Shown here piece by piece: positions 1-19,938 of a stretch of 20,000 bases of DNA (within the stretch, counting starts at the first letter, position 1; every line of letters starts with the position of its first letter). Under the pieces are notes generated by a model, which was not told the DNA's origin, did not search any database, and was given only the letters and a program-made list of their open reading frames with translations. The DNA is from Reclinomonas americana ATCC 50394 (taxonomy: Eukaryota). The translations under genes and the position numbers were made by a program. The stretch spans positions 178,389-198,388 of the forward strand of contig PS015099.1 of assembly GCA_048213135.1 (NCBI GenBank). The letters run 5' to 3'.

Positions 1-1737
1 GTGCCGGGGACGCTGACTGTTGGTGTGTTAACCTTCATGTGTTTTATAGAGTGCCATCTCTCTCTCTCTCTCTCTCTCTCCCCTTCTGCGTTTTTTGTAG
101 ATGCTCATGCTGATTTGTGGTGTGTGTGCAATGTGCAGTGGCTTTGGCGGAGTCGTTTTCGCCATCGTTAATACATCCGAACACTGCTGGCCAGACGGTG
201 ACAGTGACTGGGCGTGCGTTGACGGCAAGTGATACTGTGCGATTGGTGTCTGGCGGAACGTGCGTGAGTGGCACAACGACGTACAACATGACGAGTGGAG
301 CGTTGGGTGGGTCGGCTGGAGCGCGCACGCTGACCGTGTCGACGGGCAACACCAGTCTCGCGGCCGGATCGTATCTTGTGTGGTTCGTTTGTTGCCCTCA
401 TTTTTGTTTCTCTTCGTGCACTGCTTGTGTGACAATCCTCGTGTTTGTGTTTGCAGTTACTTGTACGGCGGAACAGGGACGCCAGTGCAAGTTGGCAGCA
501 CATCGCTTCTCGTCAGCAACGGTGAGTTCATTTACTCATGATAATATTAGCCAGCACACATGATTATTGACTGTCGTATTCTCGATCATATCAGCGTCGT
601 CGGCAACGACAAACGCCGCGTCAGCAGTGTCGTCGCTCACTGCGACACTGAATGGCCTGGTCACCAACGTTTCTGCTTCGGCCAGCAACAACTACTTTGA
701 GCTCGCGGTCGACAGCGGGGATTTCTNNNNNNNNNNNNNNNNNNNNAGATGGATCACACACTCAGCAAGACCTGAACCCACAACGCCATGTAAGATGCTC
801 TATCCGCCCGACAATTCACAGGACCTCCCTTTTCTTCTTCTTCCACTCACCGGTGGCGTACAGCCGATTACCGTTGACGACGACGCCAAACTGCACACAA
901 GAGTTGCGCCTCAGTTCGTTGTGCTGGAATCACAATACAACACAGCAAACGAAATCAATGAAGAACTACAAACCACATATTGCAACAGCGCACTCGCCAG
1001 TGGCCCGTTCACAGTGCCAGGCCCATGAACGACAGTTGAAACATCCATACTCGACAGGTCGAGTTGACGAATACTACCATGGCCGCCTTCGGCAACGTAC
1101 AGCACATCGCGCGTGATATCCAGAGCCACGCCGAATGTCGACTGGAAAGTCGCACTGAGCGCAGCTCCGTCATCTGATCCAATCACCCCAGTGCCCGCAA
1201 TCGTCGTCACTTGGTTCGTGGTCAGATTGATTTGTCGAATTATCATACTGATGCCAGAGCCAACATACAGCATATTGCGTGCCTGGTCCACCGCAAAGGA
1301 AGATGGCTGATTGAATGTAGCCGTCGATAAACAATCGCCGTTGGTGGTGCCGCTCGTATTTTGATGTCCGCAAAACAACGTCGCGCCAGTTCCGTCGCTC
1401 TTGATGCGACTGTATACGCGAACCTAGAAATCAGAGTCCGCATAACAGTCAACGAGCGTANNNNNNNNNNNNNNNNNNNNNNNNNNNNNNNNNNNNNNNN
1501 NNNNNNNNNNNNNNNNNNNNNNNNNNNNNNNNNNNNNNNNNNNNNNNNNNNNNNNNNNNNNNNNNNNNNNNNNNNNNNNNNNNNNNNNNNNNNNNNNNNN
1601 NNNNNNNNNNNNNNNNNNNNNNNNNNNNNNNNNNNNNNNNNNNNNNNNNNNNNNNNNNNNNNNNNNNNNNNNNNNNNNNNNNNNNNNNNNNNNNNNNNNN
1701 NNNNNNNNNNNNNNNNNNNNNCGTACGTACGTACGTA

Positions 1738-1797
<60 letters not shown>

Positions 1798-3259
1798 CTC
1801 GTGGATACGACAGCTGCCCTTGCGACGAGCGCTGCGGCGACAGCCGTGTCCACGTACACGGCTACAGTGAACGGGTCGATCACGAACAACTCTGGTGCGA
1901 CGAGCAGCAACTATTTCGAGTTGGCGCGATCGAGTAGTGATTTCACGACAGCGTCGTCGGTGACGACGTATGCTGGCACGCTGGGCACTCCTGGAACAAC
2001 CAATGGACCGCTTGCGAGTGCGCTGTTCAACGATCCGCGAGTTACGTCTCTGCTTCCTGCGTGATTGCTTGTGCTTATGAGCGACCGCGAATGATATTTC
2101 TCCTGACACTTGATTTCGTGATGCGTTTGCACTGCAGGGCATTGTTGGCGACTCTAAAGGCGATTTGTACCTTGTGGAAGCAGGGTTGCGTGCCTTTGCT
2201 GCGTCTTGCGCCGATGAGCCGGCGATCACTTCTCGCTGAATCTCTCTCTCTCTCCCCCTCTCTCTCTCCTATTCCTTGCTCTTGCGCAGCAATAACTGCA
2301 TTCGGTTTATCGATGTGTCGTCGGGCATGGTGTCGACGTTTGCTGGTGTGTGTGGAGCAACTGGAGCATTGGTGGATGGTGTGGCGACTACGGCGCGGTT
2401 CAACGGGTTCGTGTGGTTTTTTCATTTGAGGCTGTCGTTAGATTGAGGTCGGAGTGTGTGTCTGACATGTCGTCGATAATGTTTCGTGCGTGTGTGCAGT
2501 CCACGAGGCCTCGCCATTGATCTGGAGTCGAGCACGCTGTTTGTTGCTGATGTGCGTGAGACACCGGGCGATTCGTTCGCCTTGTTTCTATGTCATGTGT
2601 ACGCTAGTTACCACGATGCACACTTCTCGTTCCTTCTTGCCACCTTGCTGCGATTCTGTTGTTCTATTATGTCATTCCTTTTGAAAAAAACACGAATTCT
2701 CTTTATCTTGACTTGGCTGTAAACTGTTGGCCATGTGCGTCTCTGTGAACTCACTTCTGTTTTCACAGTCATCAAACAACGCACTACGACGAGTGTCGTC
2801 GACTGGGTACACAACGACGCTGGTCACGAGCAGTAGTGCGACACCGGCTCCGGACTTCATCTACAGTGTGGTGTACGACGCGGGCAACGAAGTGTTGTAC
2901 TTTTCCGAGTTCATCCAGCATGCTGTGCGGTGAGTGGCTGGTGGAAAGTAAGCCTGGAGCAGCAGAGTGCAAGAGAGATTTTATTTATCAGTGAGTTGGT
3001 AGGATAATGTCAGAAAGTGCCAGGCTGACCATCTCTTTTGTGGCTTTCGTGTTTGTGGTGGTCTTTTTCGACGGGGTTTCTATCTCTATGTCATTTGCGT
3101 TTACTGAACCCTCTGTGTNNNNNNNNNNNNNNNNNNNNNNNNNNNNNNNNNNNNNNNNNNNNNNNNNNNNNNNNNNNNNNNNNNNNNNNNNNNNNNNNNN
3201 NNNNNNNNNNNNNNNNNNNNNNNNNNNNNNNNNNNNNNNNNNNNNNNNNNNNNNNNNNN

Positions 3260-3317
<58 letters not shown>

Positions 3318-5558
3318 AGTGGCTTCGGCGGAGTCGTTTACTCCATCGACGATCACGCCGAATACGGCCGGGCAGACGGTGACGGTGACTGGGCGAGCAT
3401 TGTCAGCAAGTGATGCTGTGCGATTGGTGTCTGGCGGAACGTGCGTGAGTGGCACGACGACGTACAACATGACGAGTGGAGCTGTGAGTGGGTCGGCTGG
3501 AGCGCGCACGCTGACTGTGTCGACGGGCAACACCAGTCTGGCGGCCGGATCTTATCTTGTGTGGTACGCTCACTGTATTGCGTTTTGTGACTCTCCTTGT
3601 GCAGTACTTGTGTGTCACCCTCGTGTTTGTGTTTGCAGTTACTTGTACGGCGGAACGGGTACGCCAGTGCAAGTTGGCAGCACGTCTTTAACCGTTGCAA
3701 CAGGTGTGTTCTATGTTGTATCACTTTGCATCCATTTTCCCGCTTTTCACTCTCTCCTTTGGCAACAGGAACAAGCGTGACGAGCTTCACGCCGAGCAAC
3801 ATCATTGCGGAGACGAGTGGAGTGCAAGTGACTGTGAGTGGCAGTGGTCTGGCGGATGCGGATGTGGTGCAAGTTCAGAGTGCGGGATCGTGCACGGGTG
3901 CTGGCACCGTGCTGTCTCTCGTTTCGACGGCTGCCGATGGACTGACCACGATTCGGCAAACCACGAGCACGTCGCTTGCGGCGGGATCGTACTGGGTGTG
4001 GTGCGTGTGTTTGTGTCGTTCGGATTGGAAGACATGCATGTGTGCAACGAGCGAAGAAGCGTTCGTGCTTTAGCAAGCAAGCAAGAGAGTTAGAGAGAGA
4101 GAGAGGGAGAAGAAGATCTACGAACGAGATTGCATGTTTCGTCTTGAACTGATCAGACTGGCGTGTGTTTCTCGCACAGCATTCACTTTGCGAGCGCGGG
4201 TGCGGGTGTCTGGCAGCAAGTGCCGGGCGTACTGACAGTAGGTGCGTGTCTGTGTGGCATGTGTTGAACTGAGAACTGTCACCCTTCTTCTCTCTCTCTC
4301 TCTCTCTGTGTGTGTATGTGTGTGTGTATGTGTGCGTGTGTATGTGTGTGTATATGTGTGTGTTGTGTGTGTGTGTTGTTTTTCGTAACGAGTTGACCTC
4401 ATGCTGATTGTGATGTGTGATGTGCAGTGGCGTCGGCGGAGTCGTTTTCTCCGTCGACGATTACACCCAACACGGCTGGCCAGACGGTGACGGTGACTGG
4501 GCGAGCATTGTCAGCAAGTGATGCTGTGCGATTGGTGTCTGGTGGCACGTGCGTGAGCGGCACGACGACGTACAACATGACGAGCGGAGCAGTGGGTGGG
4601 TCGGCTGGAGCGCGCACGCTGACTGTGTCGACGGGCAACACGAGTCTGGCGGCCGGATCGTATCTCGTGTGGTTCGTTTCTGCATTCAGTGTGCGACTCT
4701 CCTTGGGTACTGTTGTTGTGACATCCTCGTGTTTCGGTGCAGTTACTTGTACGGCGGAACGGGGACGCCAGTGCAAGTTGGCAGCACGTTGCTTCTCGTA
4801 AGCAATGGTTTGTTCGTTTTCATGATATTATCCTCATTACGCATGATTATTGACTGATGTATTCTCGATCGTCTCAGCGTCGTCGGCAACGACAAACGCC
4901 GCGTCAGCAGTGTCGTCGCTCACTGCGACACTGAATGGTCTGGTCACCAACATTTCTGCGTCGGCCAGCAACAACTACTTTGAGCTTGCGGTCGACAGCG
5001 GGGATTTCTCGACGGCGTCCGCGGTCAGCACCTTTGCTGGCAGCTATAATACCAACGGTTTCAAGAACGACGATCGACTGCATGCGATGTTCAATGGCCC
5101 ACTTGTTGAGTAACTGATCGCATGATTTACCATGCAACATGCTATGTATGAGTTTTTTTCCGATCTTGATCTCATGTGTTTTCATTTGTTAGGGAATGAC
5201 AACGGATGCACGCGGCAATCTGTATGTCGCCGACTACCTGTTGCGTTGATGCCCGCATGTATTGCCATGATGACGCAGACCTGATTTGACTCTGGTGTGT
5301 GCTTCCGTGCAGCAATCAATGCATCCGATTTGTCGACATTCACTCTGGAGATGTGTCGACATACACTGGCGGATGTGGCCAGACGCACGACTATGTGAAC
5401 GGCGGTCCGTCTGTTGCTCGATTCTATAAGTTGCGTTGAATTGCTGCTGTTGTGCGCGCGCGGGGTTCCTCTCTCGTTANNNNNNNNNNNNNNNNNNNNN
5501 NNNNNNNNNNNNNNNNNNNNNNNNNNNNNNNNNNNNNNNNNNNNNNNNNNTCCTCCTC

Positions 5559-5621
<63 letters not shown>

Positions 5622-8600
5622 TTTCCCGTTGTCTTTTGCTTTCCGTCGCCGCTGATCGCTTCCACCACACAGGCCGACAACAACGCCGTTCGTAAAGTGA
5701 CCTCAGATCGGACGACGTCCACCTTGGTGGACAACAGCACCAATTTGAATGGCTCGCCTCTGATCGACAGTGCGTTCATTGTCGCCTACGATTCATCGTC
5801 GCAATTCGTGTACTTTAGCTCGTACAACACGCACACCATTCGGTACGTAAAGTCGCGTATTAACTGTGTTTGCACTCTGACCCCATTATTTGGCGCACAC
5901 AGTCGCATCAAGAGTGACGGGACTGGCGCGATTGTGTTCTGCGGACAACACACGACGGGTGGCACTACCGATGGCGACTGCGCGACGGCAGCTAAATTCA
6001 CTCTACCGTCTTCGATTGCGGTCGATCAGGCACGCAATGTGCTGTATGTCGGCTCTGGTTCCAACGTGGTAATTCGACAAATCAATCTGACCACGAACCA
6101 AGTGACGACGATTGCGGGCACTGGGGCTGCTGGATCAGGTGATGGAGCTGCACTCAGTGCGACTTTCCAGTCGACATTCGGCGTGGTTCTGGATATCACG
6201 CGCGATGTGTTGTACGTTGCCGAACGCGACCGTGGCAGCGTCCGCCAGCTCAACCTGTCGAGCATGAACGTCTCGACCGTTGTCAACGGCCCGAGTGGCA
6301 GTGTCAACGGGCCACTGGCAAATGCGCAATTCAACTTTGCGGTGAGTATCTTGCTTCTCTGCTGCGCTATGGTTTCTCTCGTGAGTCCAAAGGAATGGAC
6401 TGACACGCTACTCTTGTGTGCAGTTTGGCATCATCGTCGACGGTAATCGGTTGTATGTCACCGGTGAGTCAGAAAATGAGCAGAGGGGAGGGCTTGTGAA
6501 CTGCTGGAGGTATTGAGCATCTTACACGTGGGATTGTTGGTACAGACTTCAGCGCATGTGTGGTCCATCTCATCAAGTTGCAACCATCAACTGCACGGAT
6601 CACGGCATCGCCGAGCACGACCGGGGCCGGCTCTTCTGCGTCGATATCCAAGGCTGTCGCGCAACTCAACAGCGGAGCGACGTACTACTTCCGTGCGGTG
6701 ACTGTGTTGTCCGACTCGACGGTGCTTACCGGATCGACGCTGTCGTTTACGAGTGCGTCTGCGCGTGTGTGTATGATATATATTTGTGATTGATGGACTG
6801 CAATATCTAACACATGCCGTGATGTGGTATGCAGCAACTGGAGCACTGACGACAGGGTTCTCGCCGACGTCGATTGCAGCGACGACGAGCAATGTGCAGA
6901 TTGTGGTGACGGGTGTGAACTTGTTGGCGAGCGATGTGGTGCAAGTGGAGTCTGGAGCGTCGTGCAGCGGCAGTGGGACGGCGCTGACGCACGTGTCGGT
7001 GTCGAGTGACGGGACAACGAAAACAGTCAAGACGCCGAGTCCGTCGACGGCACTGACGAATGGATTGGACTCTGTGTGGTACGTGGGTGTGAAGGAAGAG
7101 AGGGAGAGGGAGATAGGAAAGGGGAAGAAGTAGAAGGAGCAGAAGAAGAAGGAAGAGAGAGAGAGATAGGACGAAGGAGATGGAGAGAGAGAGAGAGAGT
7201 GAAGAAGAAGAGAGAAAAATGAGGAGGTGGACGAGGATAGAGAGTTGTGGAACTCGGTGCGTTTTCTGACGTATTGTTCTTGTTGATGTCACTGTTATTA
7301 TTGCTGTTGTGCGTGTTCAGTTACTTGTATGGAGGCGTGGGCGCGGCGGAGCGTGTCGGAACGACGTCGCTTGTTATCGGCAATGGTTTGTTGGATGTTC
7401 GGGGCGCATTTTGCCTGTTGTCGCATGTCGTTGATATTTCTCTCTCTCTCTCTCTCTCTGTGGGACAGCTGCCCTTGCGACGAGCAGCGCGGCGACTGCA
7501 GTGTCTACGTACACGGCGACGGTGAACGGGTCGATCACGAACAACTCTGGTGCGACGAGCAGCAACTATTTCGAGTTGGCGCGATCGAGCAGTGATTTCA
7601 CGACAGCGTCGTCGGTGACGACGTATGCTGGTACGCTGGGCACTCCTGGAACAACCAATGGACCGCTTGCGAGTGTGCTGTTCAACGATCCGCGAGTTGC
7701 GTCTCTGCTTCCTGCGTGATTGCTTGTGCTTATGAGCGACCGCGAATGATATTTCTCCTGACACTTGATTTCGTGATGCGTTTGCACTGCAGGCTATTGT
7801 TGGCGACTCTGAAGGCAATTTGTACCTTGTGGAAGCAGTGTTGCGTGCCTTTGCTGCATCTTGCGCCGATGAGCCGGCGATCACTCGTCGCTGACTCTCT
7901 CTCTCTCCCCCCTCCTCTCTCTCTCTCTCTTCTTCCTTAATGCGTGTCATTGCTCTTGCGCAGCAATAATTGCGTTCGGTTTATCGATGTGTCGTCGGGC
8001 ATGGTGTCGACGTTTGCTGGTGTGTGTGGAGCAACTGGAGCATTGGTGGATGGTGTGGCGACTACGGCGCGGTTCAACGGGTTCGTGTGGTTTTTTTGAT
8101 TTGAGGCTGTCGTCAGATTGAGGTCGTGTTGTGTGTCTGACGTGTCGTCGATAATGTTTCGTGCGCGTGTGCAGTCCACGCGGCATCGCCATTGATCTGG
8201 AGTCGAGTACCCTGTTTGTTGCTGATGTACGTAAGATTATTAACTCTCTCCCTATCTCTGTTCCTGTTCCCGTGACTCTGTATTCTATCGATTCATTCCG
8301 TTTTCATCCCCTTCGTTGCTGTATTCGCTTCTGCTTGGCTGTTGGGTATTGATCTTCTGCGTCTCTGCGTGCTCACCCGCTTGCCGTCGTAGTCGTCAAA
8401 CAACGCCATTCGTCGCGTGTCGTCGACTGGGTACACGACATCATTAGTCACGAGCAGCAGTGCCACTCCCGCTCCAGACTTCATCTACAGTGTGGTGTAC
8501 GATGCGGGCAACGAGGTGTTGTACTTCTCCGAGATTAACACGCATACAGTAAGGTTAGTGGCAGGTGGGAAATGAGCATGGTACAGCCGAATGCAAGGGA

Positions 8601-10447
8601 GTAGAAATTATGTTTCTGTGTGGAGTGTGATCCTTGAGCAGCATTTGTACTCATCTCTGTTTGAGCTGCCCTTCCGCTTCTCCGTGTGCTTCTCTGATAC
8701 AACTGTCGGCGATGGAACACGTTCACTCATGATTTTATCTTTGTATTCCCCCCTTTTTCACAGGCGTGTGAACGCCGACGGCTCGTCCCTCACACTACTG
8801 TGCGGTCAATACGGCACTTCTGGCGCTGCCGACGGCGACTGCTCAACCACTACACCGACATTCAACGAACCCGCGGGACTGGCACTCGACCTGTCAGTCA
8901 ACAAACTATACGTGGGGTCACGTAACGGACGTAAGATTCGTCAACTGGACTTGGCGGCGAGCCCACTGCAGCTTGGCACTCTGGTTGGCCAGGATACTAT
9001 TGGGTACACTGTGGGCCCCGCTGCAACTGCCAAGTTCTCCGATCCACGCGCGCTGTACCTGGACGAAGTGCGACGGATTCTGTTCATTGCAGACGTGTCA
9101 GTCGGCGTCAAGCAACTCGATCTCAATACCATGATCGTGTCGGCCCTCACAGTTGCTGCCCTAAGCGCACAGCCTGTCGACGGACCGTTGATGGATGCCA
9201 TTGTGTCCACGCCGGTGCGTGCGAACGTAGTGGAGTGTGTATTATTATCTTCCTTTCTCTCTCCCCCTCCCTTCTCTCTGGTGCGTATGCGTGCGCCTTT
9301 GAGCGATATTCGTGCTTGCTCGTTAGTCGATCGTGTTCACATCTTTATGAATTGTAGCTTCGTGCGCAACAGCTAGTTGCCGTACAGTATGTGGCAATGT
9401 GTGTCACTGATGTACTTACTTGCTCTTTTACAGTTTGGCATGTATTTGGCGCAAGGCAATCAACTGTATGTGACTGGTCAGTTGCAGATTTTTTGCGCGC
9501 TCGGCTGATTGACGGCGACTGTCTCGCTCACTGTGTTCATTTGTATTAGAGTTTATCGGTTCTCCTGGAATTGGCAACATCATTCGATTGATCACGCTTC
9601 AGCCTGGAGAGTGCCGCATCACTGCTGGTCCACCGACAAGTGCGTCTGGATCGACCGTCAGCATCAGTGATGCACTGTCGCAGCTGACGCCTGGATCGGC
9701 CAACTATTTCCGTGCGGTGACTGTGCTGTCGGATTCGACTGTGGTGGCCGGGTCGACGCTGTCGTTCACGACGAGTTGCGTTGGCGGAGTGGGTGGTTCC
9801 CTTTGCGCAACTCATGTTGACTTTGCTCTCGTCCCGCGTCGTGATTAGATGTTGCGCCATCGACGACGAGCTTTTCGCCGAGCAGCATTACTGCGGAGAC
9901 GAGTGGCGTGCAGATTGTTGTGACGGGCACTGCGTTGGTAACGTCGGATGTGGTGCAAGTGGAACTGGGAGCGGACTGCACTGGCGCGGGTACAGCACTG
10001 TCGTCGGTGTCTGTGGGCGGCGGCGGGACGACGAAGACAGTGCAGACAAGTGGCGTGTCGCTGGCAGTGGGATCGTATGCTGTGTGGTGCGTTTTGCGAA
10101 GAGACCAGGAGAGAATTGGAGAGAGAGGGAGAGGGAGAGTACGAGAATGCGGAGAGGGATGAGAAGAGTCGATACATGAGATGTCAGTGCGGTTGTTTGC
10201 GTGTTTGAGGGAGGCGATGAGAAGAAAAGAGGTGACGGTTGTTAGAGGATGTAGTTGTTGTGTTGGGTGTTTGCATTGACGAGTAGCTGGGGTCAATAGA
10301 TAGACAGTGTGGAGCAAGATGGAAGAGGGAGAGTAGAGTATGGCATCATCAAGCCGACTTGGTACGAAACTTACTTCTTCGATCTTTACAGCATCCAGTT
10401 TGGAGGAACGGGACTGTGGAGCACTGTGCCGGGGACGCTGACTGTTG
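1..10447 (+). CDS. Giant repetitive, probably extracellular protein (5' and 3' partial): Ig/IPT-like domains alternating with FN3-like domains that contain inserted NHL beta-propellers
   Basis: Phase-consistent exons: 1-22, 139-382, 457-521, 595-726(gap), 1814-2040, 2138-2184, 2290-2406, 2500-2551, 2769-2929, (gap), 3320-3563, 3639-3703, 3769-4000, 4160-4221, 4428-4671, 4743-4807, 4878-5104, 5193-5239, 5313-5429, (one exon probably in gap 5480-5550), 5673-5842, 5903-6341, 6424-6463, 6546-6752, 6835-7078, 7321-7385, 7469-7695, 7793-7839, 7964-8080, 8175-8226, 8393-8553, 8764-9214, 9434-9476, 9550-9774, 9849-10086, 10392-10447. NHL motifs include FNDPRGIVGDSKGDLYLVE, FNGPRGLAIDLESSTLFVAD, FNEPAGLALDLSVNKLYVG and FSDPRALYLDEVRRILFIAD. 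No start, stop, signal peptide or TM segment is visible; continuity across the gaps is assumed. Confidence 0.85.
139..521 (+). repeat. Ig/IPT-like module type X, copy 1 (other copies 3320-3703, 4428-4807)
   Basis: ESFSPSLIHPNTAGQTVTVTGRALTASDTVRLVSGGTC...LAAGSYLVC|YLYGGTGTPVQVGSTSLLVSN; near-identical DNA in three copies, two Cys, exons of 244+65 nt each time. Confidence 0.85.
747..1409 (-). CDS. Inverted fragment of the NHL propeller type A (second half), paralogous to 5903-6570
   Basis: Minus-strand exons 1409-974, 890-851 and 771-747 match plus-strand exons 5903-6341, 6424-6463 and 6546 onward in sequence and intron phase (RIKSDGTGATLFCGHQ...FAVDQARNMLYVG...FQSTFGVALDITRDVLYVAE). N gaps lie on both sides. 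Confidence 0.85.
1722..1791. repeat. (CGTA)4 followed by a (CT)n microsatellite in an intron at a gap edge
   Basis: Seen directly; similar (CT)n tracts at about 56-81, 5560-5618 and 7438-7459. Confidence 0.95.
1814..2929 (+). repeat. FN3::NHL module type B, copy 1 (truncated by gap 3119-3259)
   Basis: Exon sizes 227/47/117/52/161 nt, identical to 7469-8553; very high DNA identity including introns up to about 2551. Confidence 0.85.
3263..3315. repeat. (GT)n microsatellite directly upstream of a 3' splice site
   Basis: Seen directly; a compound (CT)n(GT)n tract also lies at about 4286-4378. Confidence 0.95.
3769..4221 (+). repeat. Ig/IPT-like module type Y (related copies 6835-7385, 9849-10447; the tail of another at 1-22)
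   Basis: TSFTPSNIIAETSGVQVTVSGSGLADADVVQVQSAGSC...GSYWVC|IHF...VPGVLTV; the same phase-2 intron splits the Cys codon as in type X. Confidence 0.8.
4878..6752 (+). repeat. FN3::NHL module type A, near-complete copy (copy 1 starts at 595)
   Basis: ATTNAASAVSSLTATLNGLVTNISASASNNYFELA [NHL blades] ...SISKAVAQLNSGATYYFRAVTVLSDSTVLTGSTLSFT. Confidence 0.8.
7469..9774 (+). repeat. FN3::NHL module type B, complete copy
   Basis: ATSSAATAVSTYTATVNGSITNNSGATSSNYFELA [about six NHL blades] ...SISDALSQLTPGSANYFRAVTVLSDSTVVAGSTLSFTT; eight phase-consistent exons. Confidence 0.85.
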
Positions 10448-10619
10448 GTGTGTTAACCTTCGTGTGTTTTATAGAGAGTGCAATCTCTCTNNNNNNNNNN
10501 NNNNNNNNNNNNNNNNNNNNNNNNNNNNNNNNNNNNNNNNNNNNNNNNNNNNNNNNNNNNNNNNNNNNNNNNNNNNNNNNNNNNNNNNNNNNNNNNNNNN
10601 NNNNNNAACCACGGCTCAC

Positions 10620-13650: not shown

Positions 13651-16600
13651 ATGGTCCGTCTTGCGTCGGTGTTGTTGGTGTTGTTGCTGGTGCTCTTTGT
13701 GTCGTGCTCCTCTGTGGATGCAAGTTGCGACATTTTTCTTCTCGTTGTTTTGCCCTTCGTCGCGATCGCTCACAACAACGCTCTCTGCACAGGGAGAACG
13801 GTCAAGTGCGGACAGAGTTGAGTGCAGCGATTGCTTTCTGTGCGCGGCACTGCATCGCCACACCACTGACCGTGTACACACACACGCACAGCATCTGTGA
13901 GCGATACTAATGTGCAGGCGACGATCACGTGCGGAGGTCAGGTGCGGCCACTCGGTAACGCCATGCCGGTGGCGATCAACTCGGCTTCCTGGGGTCGAAG
14001 CATTGGTGAGAAGTTTTTCCGCGGCCATGAGAAGCCAGGACGACCCTTTGTTGGTGACTGACCTCGCTTGTTTGTGTGTGTCAGTGACCTCCACGTGCCC
14101 GATCTCGTCGATGTTTGGCAACACGCGCGTCGACTCACAAACGTGCGCTCCGTCGGATGTGGATGTGACGAGCTTTGTGGCGGCGGCGTGCGCTGGACAA
14201 GCGTCGTGCGCTGTCAGTGTGGCGGATGATGGCCCGCTCAACCGCGTGGGCCAGAGCGCCAATGGCGCGCTCAACGAGCCGTGCCCGGCCGTGTACAAGT
14301 ACTTGACGGTCGACTTCACGTGCAGCTGCGTGGCGGGCTTCATGGGAGCCGCCTGCGAGTGCAACCAGGCCACTGACTGGTGAGACGCGCTTTCATCGCC
14401 CTCGTCAGTATTTTCTCGTCCTCATTTCTCTCCCCTTCCCCTCTTGCAGCAACGTGCAGACGGTGCTTCCCAGTGGTCTGCCGGCCGGCACGTGCAACCC
14501 GAACGGCACGGTGGCCGGTGGCAACCTGTGCTTCTGCCAGCCGGGCTTTTACGGCGCGGCTTGCCTCGGCACGTGCAACTGCAAGAACGGTGGCACGTGC
14601 GCTGATGGCGCCTCGGGCGACGGCAAGTGCACCTGCCCTGCCGGTTTCTATGGCGCCGACTGCTCGGGCGTGTGCCCTACCTGCCTCAACGGTGGCACAT
14701 GCAACCAGGGCTCTCTGGGCGACGGCAAGTGCACATGCCCGGCCGGCTTTTTCGGTGCCGACTGCTCGGGTGTGTGCCCGCTGTGCCAGAATGGTGGCAC
14801 ATGCAACCAGGGTGCGCTGGGCGACGGCAAGTGCTCGTGCCCAGCCGGCACCAACGGCCCGCTGTGCCAGTGCACCAACGCCGGCACATGCAGCGGCTAC
14901 GGAGTGTGCCAGTCGGATGCGCAGTGCCTGTGCAACTCTGGCTTCCAGTCGCCGAACTGCGCCAACTGCCAGACGGGCCGGTACGGACCCGCTTGCGCCG
15001 GCCTCTGTTCGCAGTGCGATGTCGGCGGCACCGAGACGTGCAGCGAGGGCATCACTGGTCTCGGCTGCGTGTGCAAGAGCGGTTTCACCGGCACGCTGTG
15101 CGATCAGTGCATTGCGCAGGCGTTTGGTGCTGATTGCAGTGGCCGGTGCGCTGCTTGCGTGGTGGCCAACACGGTGGAGTGCGTGCCGGGTCGCTCTGGT
15201 GCCGGTTGCGTGTGCAAGCCAGGCTCGACTGGCTCGGCTTGCCAGTACACGGACGCGGTGACGTGCAGTGGCAAGGGTGTGGCGCAGACCGACGGATCGT
15301 GCGTGTGCACAACTGGCTTCGATGCCAGCAAGTCGTGCAGCACGTGCTTGCCGGGCCTGTTTGGTCCGACATGCACAAGCCAGTGCAGCGCTTGCTACGG
15401 TGCCGGCACGGCGACATGCTCGGAGGGTGTGTTTGGCACGGGCTGCCAGTGCAAGGAGGGCTTCACTGGCCCGCTGTGCGACAAGTGCGCTCCTGGTCGG
15501 TACGGACCGCAGTGCGCCGGCCTGTGCAGCGAGTGCTTGTCCAACGGCACGACGTCGTGCTCGGAGGGCCTGCTGGGAACCGGCTGCGCGTGCAAGCCTG
15601 GTGTTGTGGGCGACAAGTGCGACATGTGCAACCCGAACAACATCAACAGCTGCACGGACTTCAACAACGGCATCTGCGATCCGGTGACGAAGAAGTGCGG
15701 ATGCCGACCGGGCATCAACGGACCGTTCTGCGAGTGCCGTCCGGTGGAGTCGTGCAGCGGGCAAGGCACATGCAATGCGGATGCGACCTGCAACTGCTTC
15801 TATCCGTATGGTGGCTCTGACTGCAGTCAGTGCATCAACGGCATGTACGGCCCGAAGTGCGACAAGGGTTGCAGCGCGGCCACCACCTGCAATGGACACG
15901 GCACGTGCGACGGCAACGGCAACTGCGTTTGCGCCGACGGCTTTACTGGCCCACGTTGCAACACTTGCAAGTCGGGCTTCACGGGTCCGGACTGCGTGCC
16001 GATCCAGCGACAGACTGGCTGCCAGGACGACAACAATGCGGCAACTACGAGTGACGGTACAATTGTGGTGGCATGCCCGGCTGGCCAGTACGTGTTTGCC
16101 ATTTCGGCCAACTGGGGCCGCACCGACAGTTGCGTTTTTGAAAGGGAGAGAGTTGAGAAGAATCAGTTTGCTCATGTTAATTCCACACAGCCACGACATG
16201 CCCGAAGCCGCTGGGCAGCAGCTTGCTGACCAACACCACCACATGCATCAAGGACGTGACGGCGCACTTCCAGGGTCTGTGCAATCAGAACCCGCCGACG
16301 TCGTTCTGCTACGAGTTCCTGGCCAGCGGCGGCAACCTGGATCGCTTCCCGAACAACACGGGCTCAGATCCGTGCCCGTCGCAGTACAAGTTTGCGTCGG
16401 TGGCGTACGGATGCACAACGCGCAACTGCTCGAACCGCGGACGATTGGACGGAAGCGGTGCCTGTGTGTGCAACACTGGGTTCTCGGGCGACAACTGCCA
16501 GAACACCATCCCAGTGCCGCCGATGTGCGACGCCTCGGATCCGTTCGCCTGCAACGCCCCTCACAGTGGCTTCTGCAACAAGGACACCAGTCGCTGCGAG

Positions 16601-17363
16601 TGCTTTGCTGGCATTGGTGGACCCGACTGCTCGTGCCGTCCGCTGGAGACGTGCAATGGCCATGGCCTGTGCAACACCGACGGCTCGTGCTCGTGCTTCG
16701 CGTCGTGGAGTGGCGCGCGCTGCGATGTGTACGGTGGCCCACCGAATCCACCGATTCCGGGTGGTGGCCCGTGTGCGACGGATGCCGAGTGCAACAGCCC
16801 AGTGCCGAATGCATTCCTGTTCAGCGGCGTGTGCGTGGCCGGTCGCTGCCAGTGCTACCCGGGCATCAATGGCAAGAACTGCGAGTGCCGACCGGTGGAG
16901 ACGTGCTCCGGCAATGGCCAGTGCAACAGCGATGCCACATGCCGCTGCCACTTGGGCTGGACTGGTCCGAGCTGCAACGTGCGCGATCCGCAAACGGTTC
17001 CCCCGCCACCGCCGCCACCGCCACCACCGGTTCCGTTCCCGAACCCCTACCTCTGCGCCAGTGGTGAGCACACATTTCCTCTCTCTCTGTCCTTACGCGC
17101 GATGCTTGTCATACTAAGTGCACTTGAATGCTTGCGCAGACCTGGACTGCCGTGCGCCGTTCCTGCCCGACTGGCCCACACTGTACAACGGCACGTGCAA
17201 TCTGGCGACTAACACTTGCCAGTGCTATCCGGGCGTCGGTGGCGCTCACTGCACATGCCGACCGGTGGAGACCTGCAATGCCCGTGGCACGTGCCGTCCA
17301 GACGGCAGCTGCGAATGCCAGCTCGGCTGGAGTGGCGATCATTGCGAGGTGCCACCGACGTAA
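13651..17363 (+). CDS. Secreted 1093-aa protein with two SUEL-type (Gal/rhamnose-binding) lectin domains and multiple EGF/laminin-EGF-like repeats
   Basis: Exons 13651-13723, 13793-13816, 13892-14005, 14085-14379, 14450-16128, 16191-17063, 17140-17363 (3282 nt, TAA stop). Signal peptide MVRLASVLLVLLLVLFVSCSSVDA. SUEL1: ASWGR...C...VAAACAGQASC...EPCPAVYKYLTVDFTC. SUEL2: ANWGRTD...DPCPSQYKFASVAYGC. No TM segment. Confidence 0.92.
14574..14872 (+). repeat. Three tandem 102-nt (34-aa) EGF-like repeats
   Basis: C.NGGTC..G..GDGKC.CPAG..G..C; NGGTC codons begin at 14586, 14688 and 14790. Confidence 0.9.
14968..15630 (+). repeat. Four 47-aa laminin-EGF-like repeats in two pairs around one EGF
   Basis: C..GRYGP.CAGLCS.C...GT..CSEG..G.GC.CK.GFTG.LCD.C recurring in the 14454..16229 ORF. 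Confidence 0.8.
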
Positions 17364-17582: not shown

Positions 17583-19938
17583 TTAACGTTGCTGCGAGTA
17601 GTTGCCGTATCCATACGGAGGTTGCTGTGTGGCAGTGCGACTTCCCTCAGTTTGCGACAACAAGAGACAGGAGAAGAAAGGAGTCGGTCGAACCTGCGCG
17701 CCAGGGTACGCTTGTTGCGGCTGCATGTACTGCGGGTACTGGTTTCCGTAGCCATACGCTCCGTACTGCACACATTGTGAGCAAGAAAGAGGAGGTGGTT
17801 GAGTCAGCAAGGGTGCACACGTGCGACGTACCGGTTGCGCCGCCGGCTGTCCGTAGCCAGCGTAGGGGTTGGGTTGCGCCACTTGCGGGTGCTGTTGGTG
17901 CATCGGCGGCTGCGCTGGAGGCGCGCGACGAGGGTCGTTCCACGTAGTGGTGCGCGTGTTGTGATCCACAAAGTACGTTCTGCAAACGTATCAACAGTGT
18001 GAATGCAACAAAAAAGACTGCGGCGGGTCGATTACGGTCTGCTCACCGGCCTTGAGCGTCAATGCACTCCTCCCAGCCCGGCGGCAGAGAATTGGCGGCG
18101 TTGGCGTTAGCCTCCGCCAGCTCTTGTGCGTACCGCATGTCCTCCTCCTCCTGCAGGCTGCGCACGAACAAGCAAGTAAACATGGTGAAAAACAGGTCGA
18201 CGCGTGCGAGTCGCAATACAGACAACAAAGTGACGCAACCGGCGCTGCTCTTCCTCCATCTGCTGTGCCTCCAGCGCCACGCGCTCGGCCTCCTCGATTT
18301 CACGCTGCCGTCGCTGTTCCTCCTCCCTGCGCCACTGCGCCTGACGAGCCTCTTCTGCCGCGCGACGACGCGCCTCCTCTTCCGCCGCCCGCCGACGAGC
18401 CTCTTCTTCTACTGCCCGACGGCGCGCAGCCTCTTCGGCCGCACGACGACGTGCCTCTTCCTCTGCAGCCCGGCGGCGCAACTCCTCCTGTCGCAACCGC
18501 TCCTCCTCGGCCGCAATACGACGAGCCTCCTCCTCGGCACGCCGCATGTCTTCCTCTCTCCGACGCGCATCTTCGGCATCAGCACGGCGAGCCACCTCCA
18601 ACGCCACTGGTAGATGCAACGAAGGAATGTGTAAGTGACACAGTCCAACGGAGATATGAGAGAGTGCACACACTGCTCAACTTCGTGCATCATCAACCAT
18701 CCTGCGCCGAATCTCAATGCGTGGATCCGACCACGAGGTGGTCTTGTTAACATGATCCACAAAGTAGTTACGATTGTGCGTGGCATCGAAACGCATCACC
18801 CAGCCGTCTGGCAACGGGAGTGCTTCCACAGGCGGCACGGAAATGCCCTGCACACACATGCACACATGAGCACAAGAAATCGACATGTGCGTGCGAAACT
18901 GCAGCTGCCCGCAGCTCACCGTCTCATCAACAACAGCCACTGGTGCGACAGGTCGAGGTCCTGACGTTGGTGCAGCAGGAGCAACGGGTGTAGCCGGAGC
19001 GGGCGCCATTGGAACGGCGACGGGGACAGCGGAGGGGACGGGAGGGACTGGAGGCGCATACGGAGTCGGAACGGCGGCGGGAATGGGAGCAGCAGCAGCG
19101 GCGGCGGCCGAGTTGGCGGCTTGTGCCACTGTGGAGCCGTTGGAGAAGTCCAACACGACAGGTGCGGCTGGCGGCAGCGAAGGGACGCCGGGAATTCCAG
19201 AACCTGCACATACCACGGATTGAGTGCAACCATCAACCATTCTTCTCCTGGCACTCGTACACGCAACGAAGCAGGCCAATGGCGGTCTCGGCATTGCGCA
19301 TCTTGCTCCATTCAGCGTCAGCAACTTGACCCGGTGGTGCAGCAGCACCCGGTCCGATCTGCATACGTGCCATGTCTTCCGTAACCAGCGTCACGCCGAC
19401 CAACCCCCTGATTAACAGTCGTCATATGTGAGCACGCATACACACACAAACGTATCGACGGATGGACAGGCACGCACGGTGGAGGTACTGGACGATCCCA
19501 CTGCGTGACACGAGTCACGTCATTTTGATAATATACACGCCCACTGGCCACATCCAACCGCTCAGTCCAACCCTCCGGCAGCGGAGCTGCGAGCGGAACA
19601 AAGCAGTCAGCTCACATAGTCACCCATGTCATTGGCCATGCGGAATAATAGACGCACGCATGGCTGCGGCCACTGGAACCGTGACAGCGGCCACGGAGAC
19701 TGCCGCCGCCGATGGCGCCAGCTGCATCACTGGCTGCATGGGTGTGAGCATGGGTGTGGGTGCGGCGACAGGCGACGGAGCTGCTGCTGCTGAGGCTGCG
19801 GCTGGAGAGGAGCTCGACACGGCGCGTGACGGACTGTTTGGTCCCGCCAGGAAGCCACCCATGGCACCGCCAGCGTTGCGCACCTGAACTGGTGCCCCAT
19901 CGACCGCAAAACCACCACTGCCGGACCCGGATGCGGCG
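17583..19938 (-). CDS. Multi-WW-domain scaffold/adaptor protein (5' partial) with Pro/Ala-rich linkers, an E/R single alpha-helix and a Y/Q/P/G-rich tail
   Basis: Exons 19938-19658, 19586-19478, 19407-19268, 19203-18920, 18847-18682, 18606-18240, 18157-18047, 17979-17832, 17765-17694, 17624-17583 (TAA). WW domains: [92 protein letters not shown]. Confidence 0.9.
18240..18606 (-). repeat. Charged E/R/A single alpha-helix exon with about five 9-aa repeats (AAEEEARRR)
   Basis: EELRRRAAEEEARRRAAEEAARRRAVEEEARRRAAEEEARRRAAEEARQ; alternating E3/R3 pattern typical of ER/K helices. Confidence 0.85.

Follow-up and report, generated by a model that had tools for sequence, protein, structure and literature searches.

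How a β-propeller could be carried inside another folded domain, and this arrangement repeated along a eukaryotic protein chain, is the question raised by a 20,000-nucleotide stretch of the Reclinomonas americana ATCC 50394 genome (assembly GCA_048213135.1, contig PS015099.1, positions 178,389–198,388 of the forward strand). This whole stretch is termed the window. An earlier interpretation made from the letters alone (the sequence-only reading) described a repeated module in it, in which NHL blades separate two half-motifs resembling the parts of a fibronectin type III (FN3)-like domain. The region is likely to be part of one very large spliced eukaryotic gene, whose chain alternates IPT/TIG-like immunoglobulin (Ig) domains with six-bladed NHL propellers inserted in the C–C′ loop of FN3 domains; in this reading the FN3 and Ig domains would make up a stalk and the off-axis propellers would act as binding surfaces. 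Sequence comparisons show that the repeats exist, that the module is collinear with intron-free bacterial modules and that its flanks are homologous to the halves of a contiguous FN3 domain; in a predicted splice model, the exons join into one frame.

The modular gene lies on the plus strand, reaching back beyond base 153 and on past 10108; no 3′ end was located in the window. Stop-to-stop translations contain the opening half-motif four times (591–725, 1810–2049, 4874–5107 and 7462–7704) and the closing half-motif twice (6560–6757 and 9573–9776), all on the plus strand, and the positions of the remaining two closing halves coincide with N gaps. A tblastn self-search of the window with pieces of the module at 7462–9776 recovered the opening half of the 4874–5107 copy (E 3.7e-22, 51% identity), the closing half of the 6560–6757 copy (E 3.3e-23, 61% identity) and the 1810 copy (E 2e-47), with every piece of the other module copies in the same order and blade exons between the halves. 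The repetition is real and not due to chance, which bears out the sequence-only reading on this point. Its count of at least four modules applies to the opening halves; only two modules were seen through to the closing half (4874–6757, with a 71-N gap inside, and 7462–9774), two further modules being interrupted by N gaps and a piece of the first of these (747–1422) being inverted. Six Ig-like exons were located between the modules by tblastn (153–389, 3325–3564, 3774–4007, 4433–4678, 6849–7085 and 9857–10108), each followed, past an intron, by a short last-strand exon. The features of the gene are listed below.

153–523 (exon 153–389 and last-strand exon 455–523), plus strand: IPT/TIG-like Ig domain; tblastn self-matches, 87% DNA identity to 4398–5009.
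591–725, plus strand: module 0 (A-type), opening FN3 half, ended by the N gap at 727–746; tblastn.
747–1422, minus strand: A-type NHL exons, inverted, between two N gaps; tblastn and blastn.
1810–2939, plus strand: module 1 (B-type), with its opening FN3 half at 1810–2049; 92% DNA identity to 7439–8236.
2135–2182, 2288–2407, 2501–2557 and 2769–2939, plus strand: NHL exons of module 1, the remainder lost at the N gap at 3119–3259.
3325–4812, plus strand: three IPT/TIG-like Ig domains (3325–3564 with tail 3637–3708; 3774–4007; 4433–4678 with tail 4741–4812); tblastn and Pfam TIG.
4874–5107, plus strand: module 2 (A-type), opening FN3 half (strands A, B and C), continuing into the first propeller strand; translation, tblastn and hidden Markov model (HMM).
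5311–5424, then (past the N gap at 5480–5550) 5673–5849, 5904–6326 and 6424–6465, plus strand: NHL exons of module 2; matches to NHL proteins, Pfam TEN_NHL at E 1.1e-4.
6560–6757, plus strand: closing FN3 half of module 2 (strands C′, E, F and G); tblastn, HMM and profile search.
6849–7390 (6849–7085 and tail exon 7316–7390), plus strand: IPT/TIG-like Ig domain; tblastn.
7462–7695, plus strand: module 3 (B-type), predicted exon 1, with the opening FN3 half, the closing ('velcro') strand and the start of blade 1; splice model.
7793–7839, 7964–8080, 8175–8226, 8393–8553, 8764–9214 and 9434–9476, plus strand: predicted NHL exons of module 3; splice model (GT–AG introns) and NHL matches in the PDB.
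9550–9774, plus strand: predicted exon 8 of module 3, with the last propeller strand and the closing FN3 half; splice model and profile search.
9849–10108, plus strand: IPT/TIG-like Ig domain after module 3; the gene runs on towards the N gap at 10491–10606.

The stalk domains between the modules would be of IPT/TIG type, to judge from sub-threshold matches: the best Ig-like copy reached E 5.6e-4 on Pfam TIG, with 20.3 bits against a cut-off of 20.9, and three of the six copies matched at E ≤ 1, the exons having been scanned without the last strand, which is encoded separately. A profile of the six exons found nothing below E 0.3 among PDB sequences.

DNA self-comparison separates the modules into two alternating types, A and B. 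The A-type pair is 87% identical (104–726 and 4398–5009) and the B-type pair 92% identical (1776–2561 and 7439–8236). Because copies of the same type retain this 87–92% identity with introns included, the comparison suggests that a super-unit several kilobases long was duplicated recently. Modules of different types have diverged to approximately 40–60% identity with their frames still open, and their two halves, 57% and 62% identical between types, retain FN3-type conservation.

The window belongs to a draft eukaryotic scaffold with five runs of N (727–746, 1461–1721, 3119–3259, 5480–5550 and 10491–10606), and its coding frames are split into short pieces with (TC)n and (TG)n microsatellites in between. 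Long microsatellites of these two kinds lie within introns and beside several gaps, for example at 1722–1800, 3260–3310, 4290–4390, 5551–5620 and 7440–7460, and are probably the cause of the assembly gaps. The piece at 747–1422, between the gaps at 727–746 and 1461–1721, carries A-type NHL exons in reverse orientation; it is 78% identical to the reverse complement of 5890–6570 by blastn, and tblastn matched it on the minus strand at 1408–983 (E 6.5e-26). This is probably a contig placed backwards in scaffolding rather than a genuine inversion.

Module 3 and the Ig-like exon after it (7462–10108) are free of N gaps, and were used for a splice model in which in-frame GT/GC...AG pairs were enumerated between the conserved cores. 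One canonical GT–AG intron per junction retains the frame, giving eight predicted introns (7696–7792, 7840–7963, 8081–8174, 8227–8392, 8554–8763, 9215–9433, 9477–9549 and 9775–9848) with the donors GTTGCG (three times), GTTCGT, GTACGT, GTTAGT, GTGCGT and GTCAGT. The predicted product comprises 530 codons without a stop, and the flanks are spaced by approximately 335 residues, close to the 330 estimated in the sequence-only reading. Against an HMM of bacterial split modules, the spliced module scores 116.3 bits and aligns over positions 14–441 of 443; the two are therefore collinear through both junctions.

These bacterial modules come from uncharacterised proteins, attributed to Verrucomicrobiota from the labels of matching loci and one source name, that were collected in the analysis and numbered with the prefix P. 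In each of P0049, P0039 and P0047, six NHL blades stand between an FN3-like N-terminal half and an FN3-like C-terminal half, and iterated local HMMs defined six bacterial proteins with three split units each and inserts of 309–336 residues. End-to-end matches to the module HMM were obtained in 7 of the 392 proteins collected. A locus search in species-representative genomes kept 80 loci (no census, as one of its two patterns targeted the split family), of which 12 cover residues 1–437 or more of the 443-residue module, one more being ended by the end of its contig. The full-length loci are labelled Luteolibacter, Prosthecobacter, Akkermansiaceae, Verrucomicrobiaceae or Verrucomicrobiota, except for one labelled Chloroflexia. 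In this last (L002), a metagenome-assembled genome holds a full-length split module with 74% identity to the Verrucomicrobial query; the label may stem from faulty binning or from a transfer. The contiguous and the split state can be compared within a single protein, P0387, in which a contiguous FN3-like domain (547–643) is directly followed in one chain by two NHL-split copies (645–1067 and 1190–1591).

The Verrucomicrobial multi-NHL proteins (P0049, P0387 and P0046, 'choice-of-anchor D domain-containing protein [Akkermansiaceae bacterium]') thus share with the window the order of FN3 strands A–C, six NHL blades and FN3 strands C′–G, as well as the repetition of the module, three per protein, and the window module aligns with theirs end to end. 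They differ in being intron-free and in carrying Ig domains of the HYDIN/choice-of-anchor-D type, where those of the window are IPT-like, and their identity to the window is only approximately 30%. The NHL-in-FN3 architecture is not unique to this organism, since Verrucomicrobiota have it too. Pfam detects only NHL in the bacterial split proteins, leaving the split FN3 unannotated.

That the flanks belong together as halves of a single FN3 domain is supported by a search of 1.84 billion representative sequences with a profile built from both closing halves of the window. The profile matched 153 proteins at E ≤ 1e-3 and 19 at E ≤ 1e-10, with a best E of 7.9e-31, and the matches are mostly tandem arrays of FN3 domains of approximately 100 residues. 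Among the 150 matches listed, 120 have two or more profile matches at a spacing of 80–125 residues and 128 have a match to an HMM of the contiguous domain covering at least 70 of its 94 positions; the profile match falls in the C-terminal part of the contiguous domain in 105, and an NHL propeller is present in only 6. The consensus of the 51 matches of up to 700 residues ('..SA.LNG.V...G....YFEYG....L.PGTTYYFRAVA.N..G...G...SFTT') is the contiguous bacterial motif with which the sequence-only reading had compared its joined half-motifs. In these 51 proteins Pfam finds fn3 in 28, Pur_ac_phosph_N in 39, PhoD_N in 20 and FN3_DSCAM in 15 at E ≤ 1e-5. P0253 scores 153 bits on fn3, and its closing-half match at 113–141 falls on fn3 profile positions 43–81. 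The N- and C-terminal halves of this contiguous repeat, which matches Pfam fn3 and Pur_ac_phosph_N, correspond to the flanks in the window; the bacterial repeats are uninterrupted tandem domains, whereas the FN3 domain of the window module is not contiguous in sequence, some 335 residues of NHL propeller standing between strands C and C′.

The junction itself was examined with profiles of joined halves. When an HMM was built from 18 joined bacterial halves, it aligned over the junction to contiguous domains of 82–88 residues in P0094, P0082, P0070, P0061 and P0109 (10.3–20.6 bits). On the halves of the window it scores 12.6–21.5 bits, each in the correct half of the model, and 20.4–33.1 bits when they are joined, against a maximum of 6.6 bits in 400 shuffles. 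Comparison by hhalign of the joined halves (2 from the window and 18 bacterial) with 8 contiguous domains gave a probability of 96.4% and E 1.2e-9 over 92 columns, compared with 0.2% for the reversed query. Pfam had no match on the window's flanks alone, and HMMs built from its few half-copies found only weak matches among the first 120 proteins.

The contiguous domain was modelled with a predicted local distance difference test score (pLDDT) of 83.2 and has the seven-strand order of FN3. Its closest solved structure is the RsgI4 sensor domain (template modelling score, TM, 0.73), then FN3 domains of integrin beta4, contactin-5, CD148, titin and others; its profile also matches titin FN3 repeats by sequence (E 5e-5), and in Pfam it has sub-threshold matches within the FN3 clan. 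When the insertion is mapped through the hhalign alignment onto this model, it falls between strand C (32–39) and strand C′ (51–54), that is, in the C–C′ loop. In the standard FN3 topology this loop is at the C-terminal pole of the domain.

The bacterial module, modelled with AlphaFold2 (AF2) from residues 808–1250 of P0049 and four relatives, gave a pLDDT of 88.3 and a predicted TM score (pTM) of 0.87, with flank blocks mostly at 85–91. The strand order is A, B and C (12–18, 25–31 and 39–45), 24 propeller strands (54–380), then four or five strands (386–389, 399–405, 414–422, 427–429 and 433–436). The core superimposes on solved six-bladed NHL propellers with Z up to 43.0 and a root mean square deviation of 1.6 over 304 aligned positions, and the top Foldseek entry is a teneurin-like protein (9ifo); the VIA-align comparison covered only residues ~51–383, and rows of Foldseek or VIA cannot reveal a discontinuous FN3 match. 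The proposal of the sequence-only reading that the propeller is grafted into a loop of one FN3-like sandwich is thus supported by the profile search, by hhalign, by the FN3 fold of the contiguous model and by the collinear layout and confident folding of the bacterial modules, and nothing showed the flanks failing to fold together.

Six blades are predicted for the window's propeller from this model, with its 24 propeller strands and its match to solved six-bladed NHL domains; the spliced window module aligns to the bacterial module over the whole propeller. The open reading frame (ORF) 5676–6341 matched 642 proteins at E ≤ 1e-3 (best E 9.1e-102). PF01436 is present in every one, and all are multi-NHL proteins of bacterial type at 26–45% identity; there was no near-identical protein among those of 390–2000 residues. 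A search of longer proteins with the opening-half exon 7462–7695 gave 2 matches at E ≤ 10, both only to an NHL blade. By best-domain score, the Verrucomicrobial split family occupies ranks 63–117 of 141 for the window's propeller, so the propeller stands no nearer to that family than to NHL propellers of other bacteria, and the ranking lends no support to a shared origin of the insertion.

The architecture could stand as described and the propellers still be six-bladed enzymes of the lactonase, lyase or amidating-lyase type arrayed on a scaffold, in place of binding modules. Bacterial relatives are named 'sugar lactone lactonase YvrE' or 'SMP-30/gluconolactonase/LRE family' and have Pfam SGL and Vgb_lyase matches, but the lactonase-type names are automatic, and the best solved matches are not lactonases. 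Among PDB structures, the NHL domain of SOQ1 (E 2e-12) and that of NHLRC2 (E 1.6e-8) match exon 8765–9214, and the window exon and bacterial model together lead to SOQ1, NHLRC2, the teneurin-like protein and TRIM71. This possibility is weakened by these matches and appears unlikely.

The pairing of the flanks was also addressed in the window itself, by folding the translations of 7462–7623 and 9600–9773 as two chains. The score was 0.49, compared with 0.02 for the best of 3 controls, and the runs agree in at least 88% of contacts with partner pLDDT of at least 69. The result is graded as weak support: of 78 solved complexes 51 pass the mark, as do 2 of 108 mismatched pairs, but only 5 of the 78 pass at scores of 0.60 or below, where all 4 passing mismatches (of 180) fall; a pass of FN3-like halves may reflect their likeness to solved FN3 structures.

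Several observations weigh against the inserted-propeller arrangement or parts of it. The window's halves themselves were put to one direct test, and it gave the weak support just described. In the bacterial AF2 model the apparent pairing of the flanks is read from confidence values, strand order and homology. The contiguous-domain HMM scores 6.0–10.1 bits on the window halves, near the shuffle maximum of 7.6, so the link from the window to the contiguous domain has to be drawn through the closing-half search and the transitive comparison of profiles. Single pieces of the window stay below the curated Pfam cut-offs for TEN_NHL (21.8 against 27.1 bits) and NHL (13.8 against 20), as for TIG. No signal peptide, membrane anchor or gene end was found in the window for a protein that, by its domain types, is probably extracellular.

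The first three of these points would also suit an arrangement in which the flanks are not one domain. They would be independent small β-units, capping or packing on the propeller or pairing with a neighbouring domain, and their FN3 likeness would be the remnant of a broken domain. Such an arrangement is improbable, however. The A- and B-type halves keep FN3-type conservation, as do those of the bacterial modules; contiguous domains can be aligned with the joined halves over their full length; and both flanks are confidently placed in the bacterial model at its high pTM. Pairing between neighbouring modules is implausible because whole Ig-like domains separate a closing half from the next opening half. 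That no such protein is made at all, the array being an annotation artefact of mis-joined scaffold pieces or a decaying row of pseudogenes, is very hard to credit: the five N gaps, the apparently inverted piece and the lack of a near-identical protein in the databases searched are outweighed by a gap-free module with eight in-frame canonical introns and no stop, by its collinearity with intact bacterial proteins and by frames that remain open in A and B modules only ~40–60% identical.

In the favoured arrangement of NHL propellers inserted in FN3 domains, strands A, B and C of the FN3 sandwich would come first, followed by the approximately 335 residues of the propeller and then by strands C′, E, F and G, which would complete the sandwich. 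The first propeller strand (..VTTYAG..) is predicted to close the last blade, and would thereby bring the ends of the propeller together, which is needed if a domain is to be inserted into another. FN3 and IPT-like domains would form the axis of a stalk, from which each split FN3 would hold its propeller sideways in the manner of the split domains of RTX adhesins, and the exposed propeller face would bind a ligand, making the whole a multivalent adhesion or recognition protein. The sideways orientation and an adhesin or prey- or pathogen-capture function had been suggested in the sequence-only reading, and they are retained here as inference.

The closest parallel in layout is found in Gram-negative RTX adhesins such as AhLap, FrhA and MpIBP, in which split Ig-like domains project an inserted domain away from the adhesin axis (PMC12077191, PMC10865825). 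According to the passages of these sources that describe them, a stalk β-sandwich is interrupted by a whole inserted domain with its N and C termini together, and the inserts are lectin-like, RTX β-roll, vWFA or peptide-binding domains, with no propeller mentioned there (PMC12077191, PMC10865825). These adhesins are bacterial, with type I secretion and RTX repeats. The window differs in its FN3-type sandwich, its NHL insert, its at least four modules and its eukaryotic gene with introns, and the likeness is one of layout principle. Neither RTX nonapeptide repeats nor a type I secretion signal nor an N-terminal retention domain appeared in window ORFs or Pfam scans, which cover the part of the gene seen, its ends lying outside the window or in gaps. 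The window protein is not an RTX adhesin, since no RTX repeats or secretion signal were seen and introns are present; by analogy it would work like these adhesins without being a member of the group.

Teneurins, bacterial teneurin-like proteins and the TcB/YenB toxin subunits have an extracellular six-bladed NHL propeller beside an FN3-type domain, and in this resemble the predicted window protein. The NHL propeller as an inserted domain has a precedent in YenB, where, as far as the cited text describes it, the NHL domain is itself inserted within the YD-repeat domain (PMC5851990). In teneurins, by the same text, the FN-plug lies upstream of the NHL domain and is not split by it, and the YD shell follows (PMC5851990). 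Because of this order the window protein is not a teneurin; translations and Pfam scans of the window ORFs revealed no YD/Rhs repeats, TTR or toxin domain. Within the literature available for full-text search, no published account of an FN3 domain carrying an inserted NHL propeller was found, and to Pfam the family is visible only as NHL. The principle of split-domain display is already published for RTX adhesins, and its NHL-in-FN3 form is newly seen in a eukaryote and in Verrucomicrobiota.

The occurrence of the module in both groups offers a test case for spread by gene transfer as opposed to repeated origin. The FN3 domain split by NHL could tentatively be regarded as a single conserved 'propeller display cassette' of one origin, moved between Verrucomicrobiota-like bacteria and a eukaryote, where it would have gained introns and, through amplification together with IPT-like spacers, have given rise to a giant multivalent receptor at the surface, although this is doubtful. 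Were it so, bacterial split-domain adhesins would have a counterpart in eukaryotes, and teneurins would no longer be the only example of a surface module with an NHL domain that eukaryotes took over from bacteria for cell-surface recognition, this protein being the second.

For practical purposes, domain databases read such proteins as plain NHL-repeat proteins, and split-domain stalks are under-counted because an FN3 domain cut in two escapes the profiles. Recognition of the split gives experimenters the domain boundaries, and a soluble construct must hold both flanks. The propeller face opposite the junction is, by analogy with the argument made for RTX adhesins, the likely binding site.

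The genes adjoining the modular gene are eukaryotic in type. On the plus strand at approximately 13900–17360 (13901–17363), a gene with EGF repeats scores 72.1 bits on Pfam EGF_Teneurin and 58.2 bits on EGF_laminin, with a sub-threshold SUEL lectin match upstream of the repeats (21.2 bits against a cut-off of 31.4). Its ORF has 356 database matches, the closest relative being 41% identical, and it is likely to encode another extracellular protein. A minus-strand gene at approximately 17586–19611 has exons with three Pfam WW matches (24.7, 40.3 and 45.5 bits), and an arginine- and glutamate-rich stretch lies at 18110–18676 within its region.

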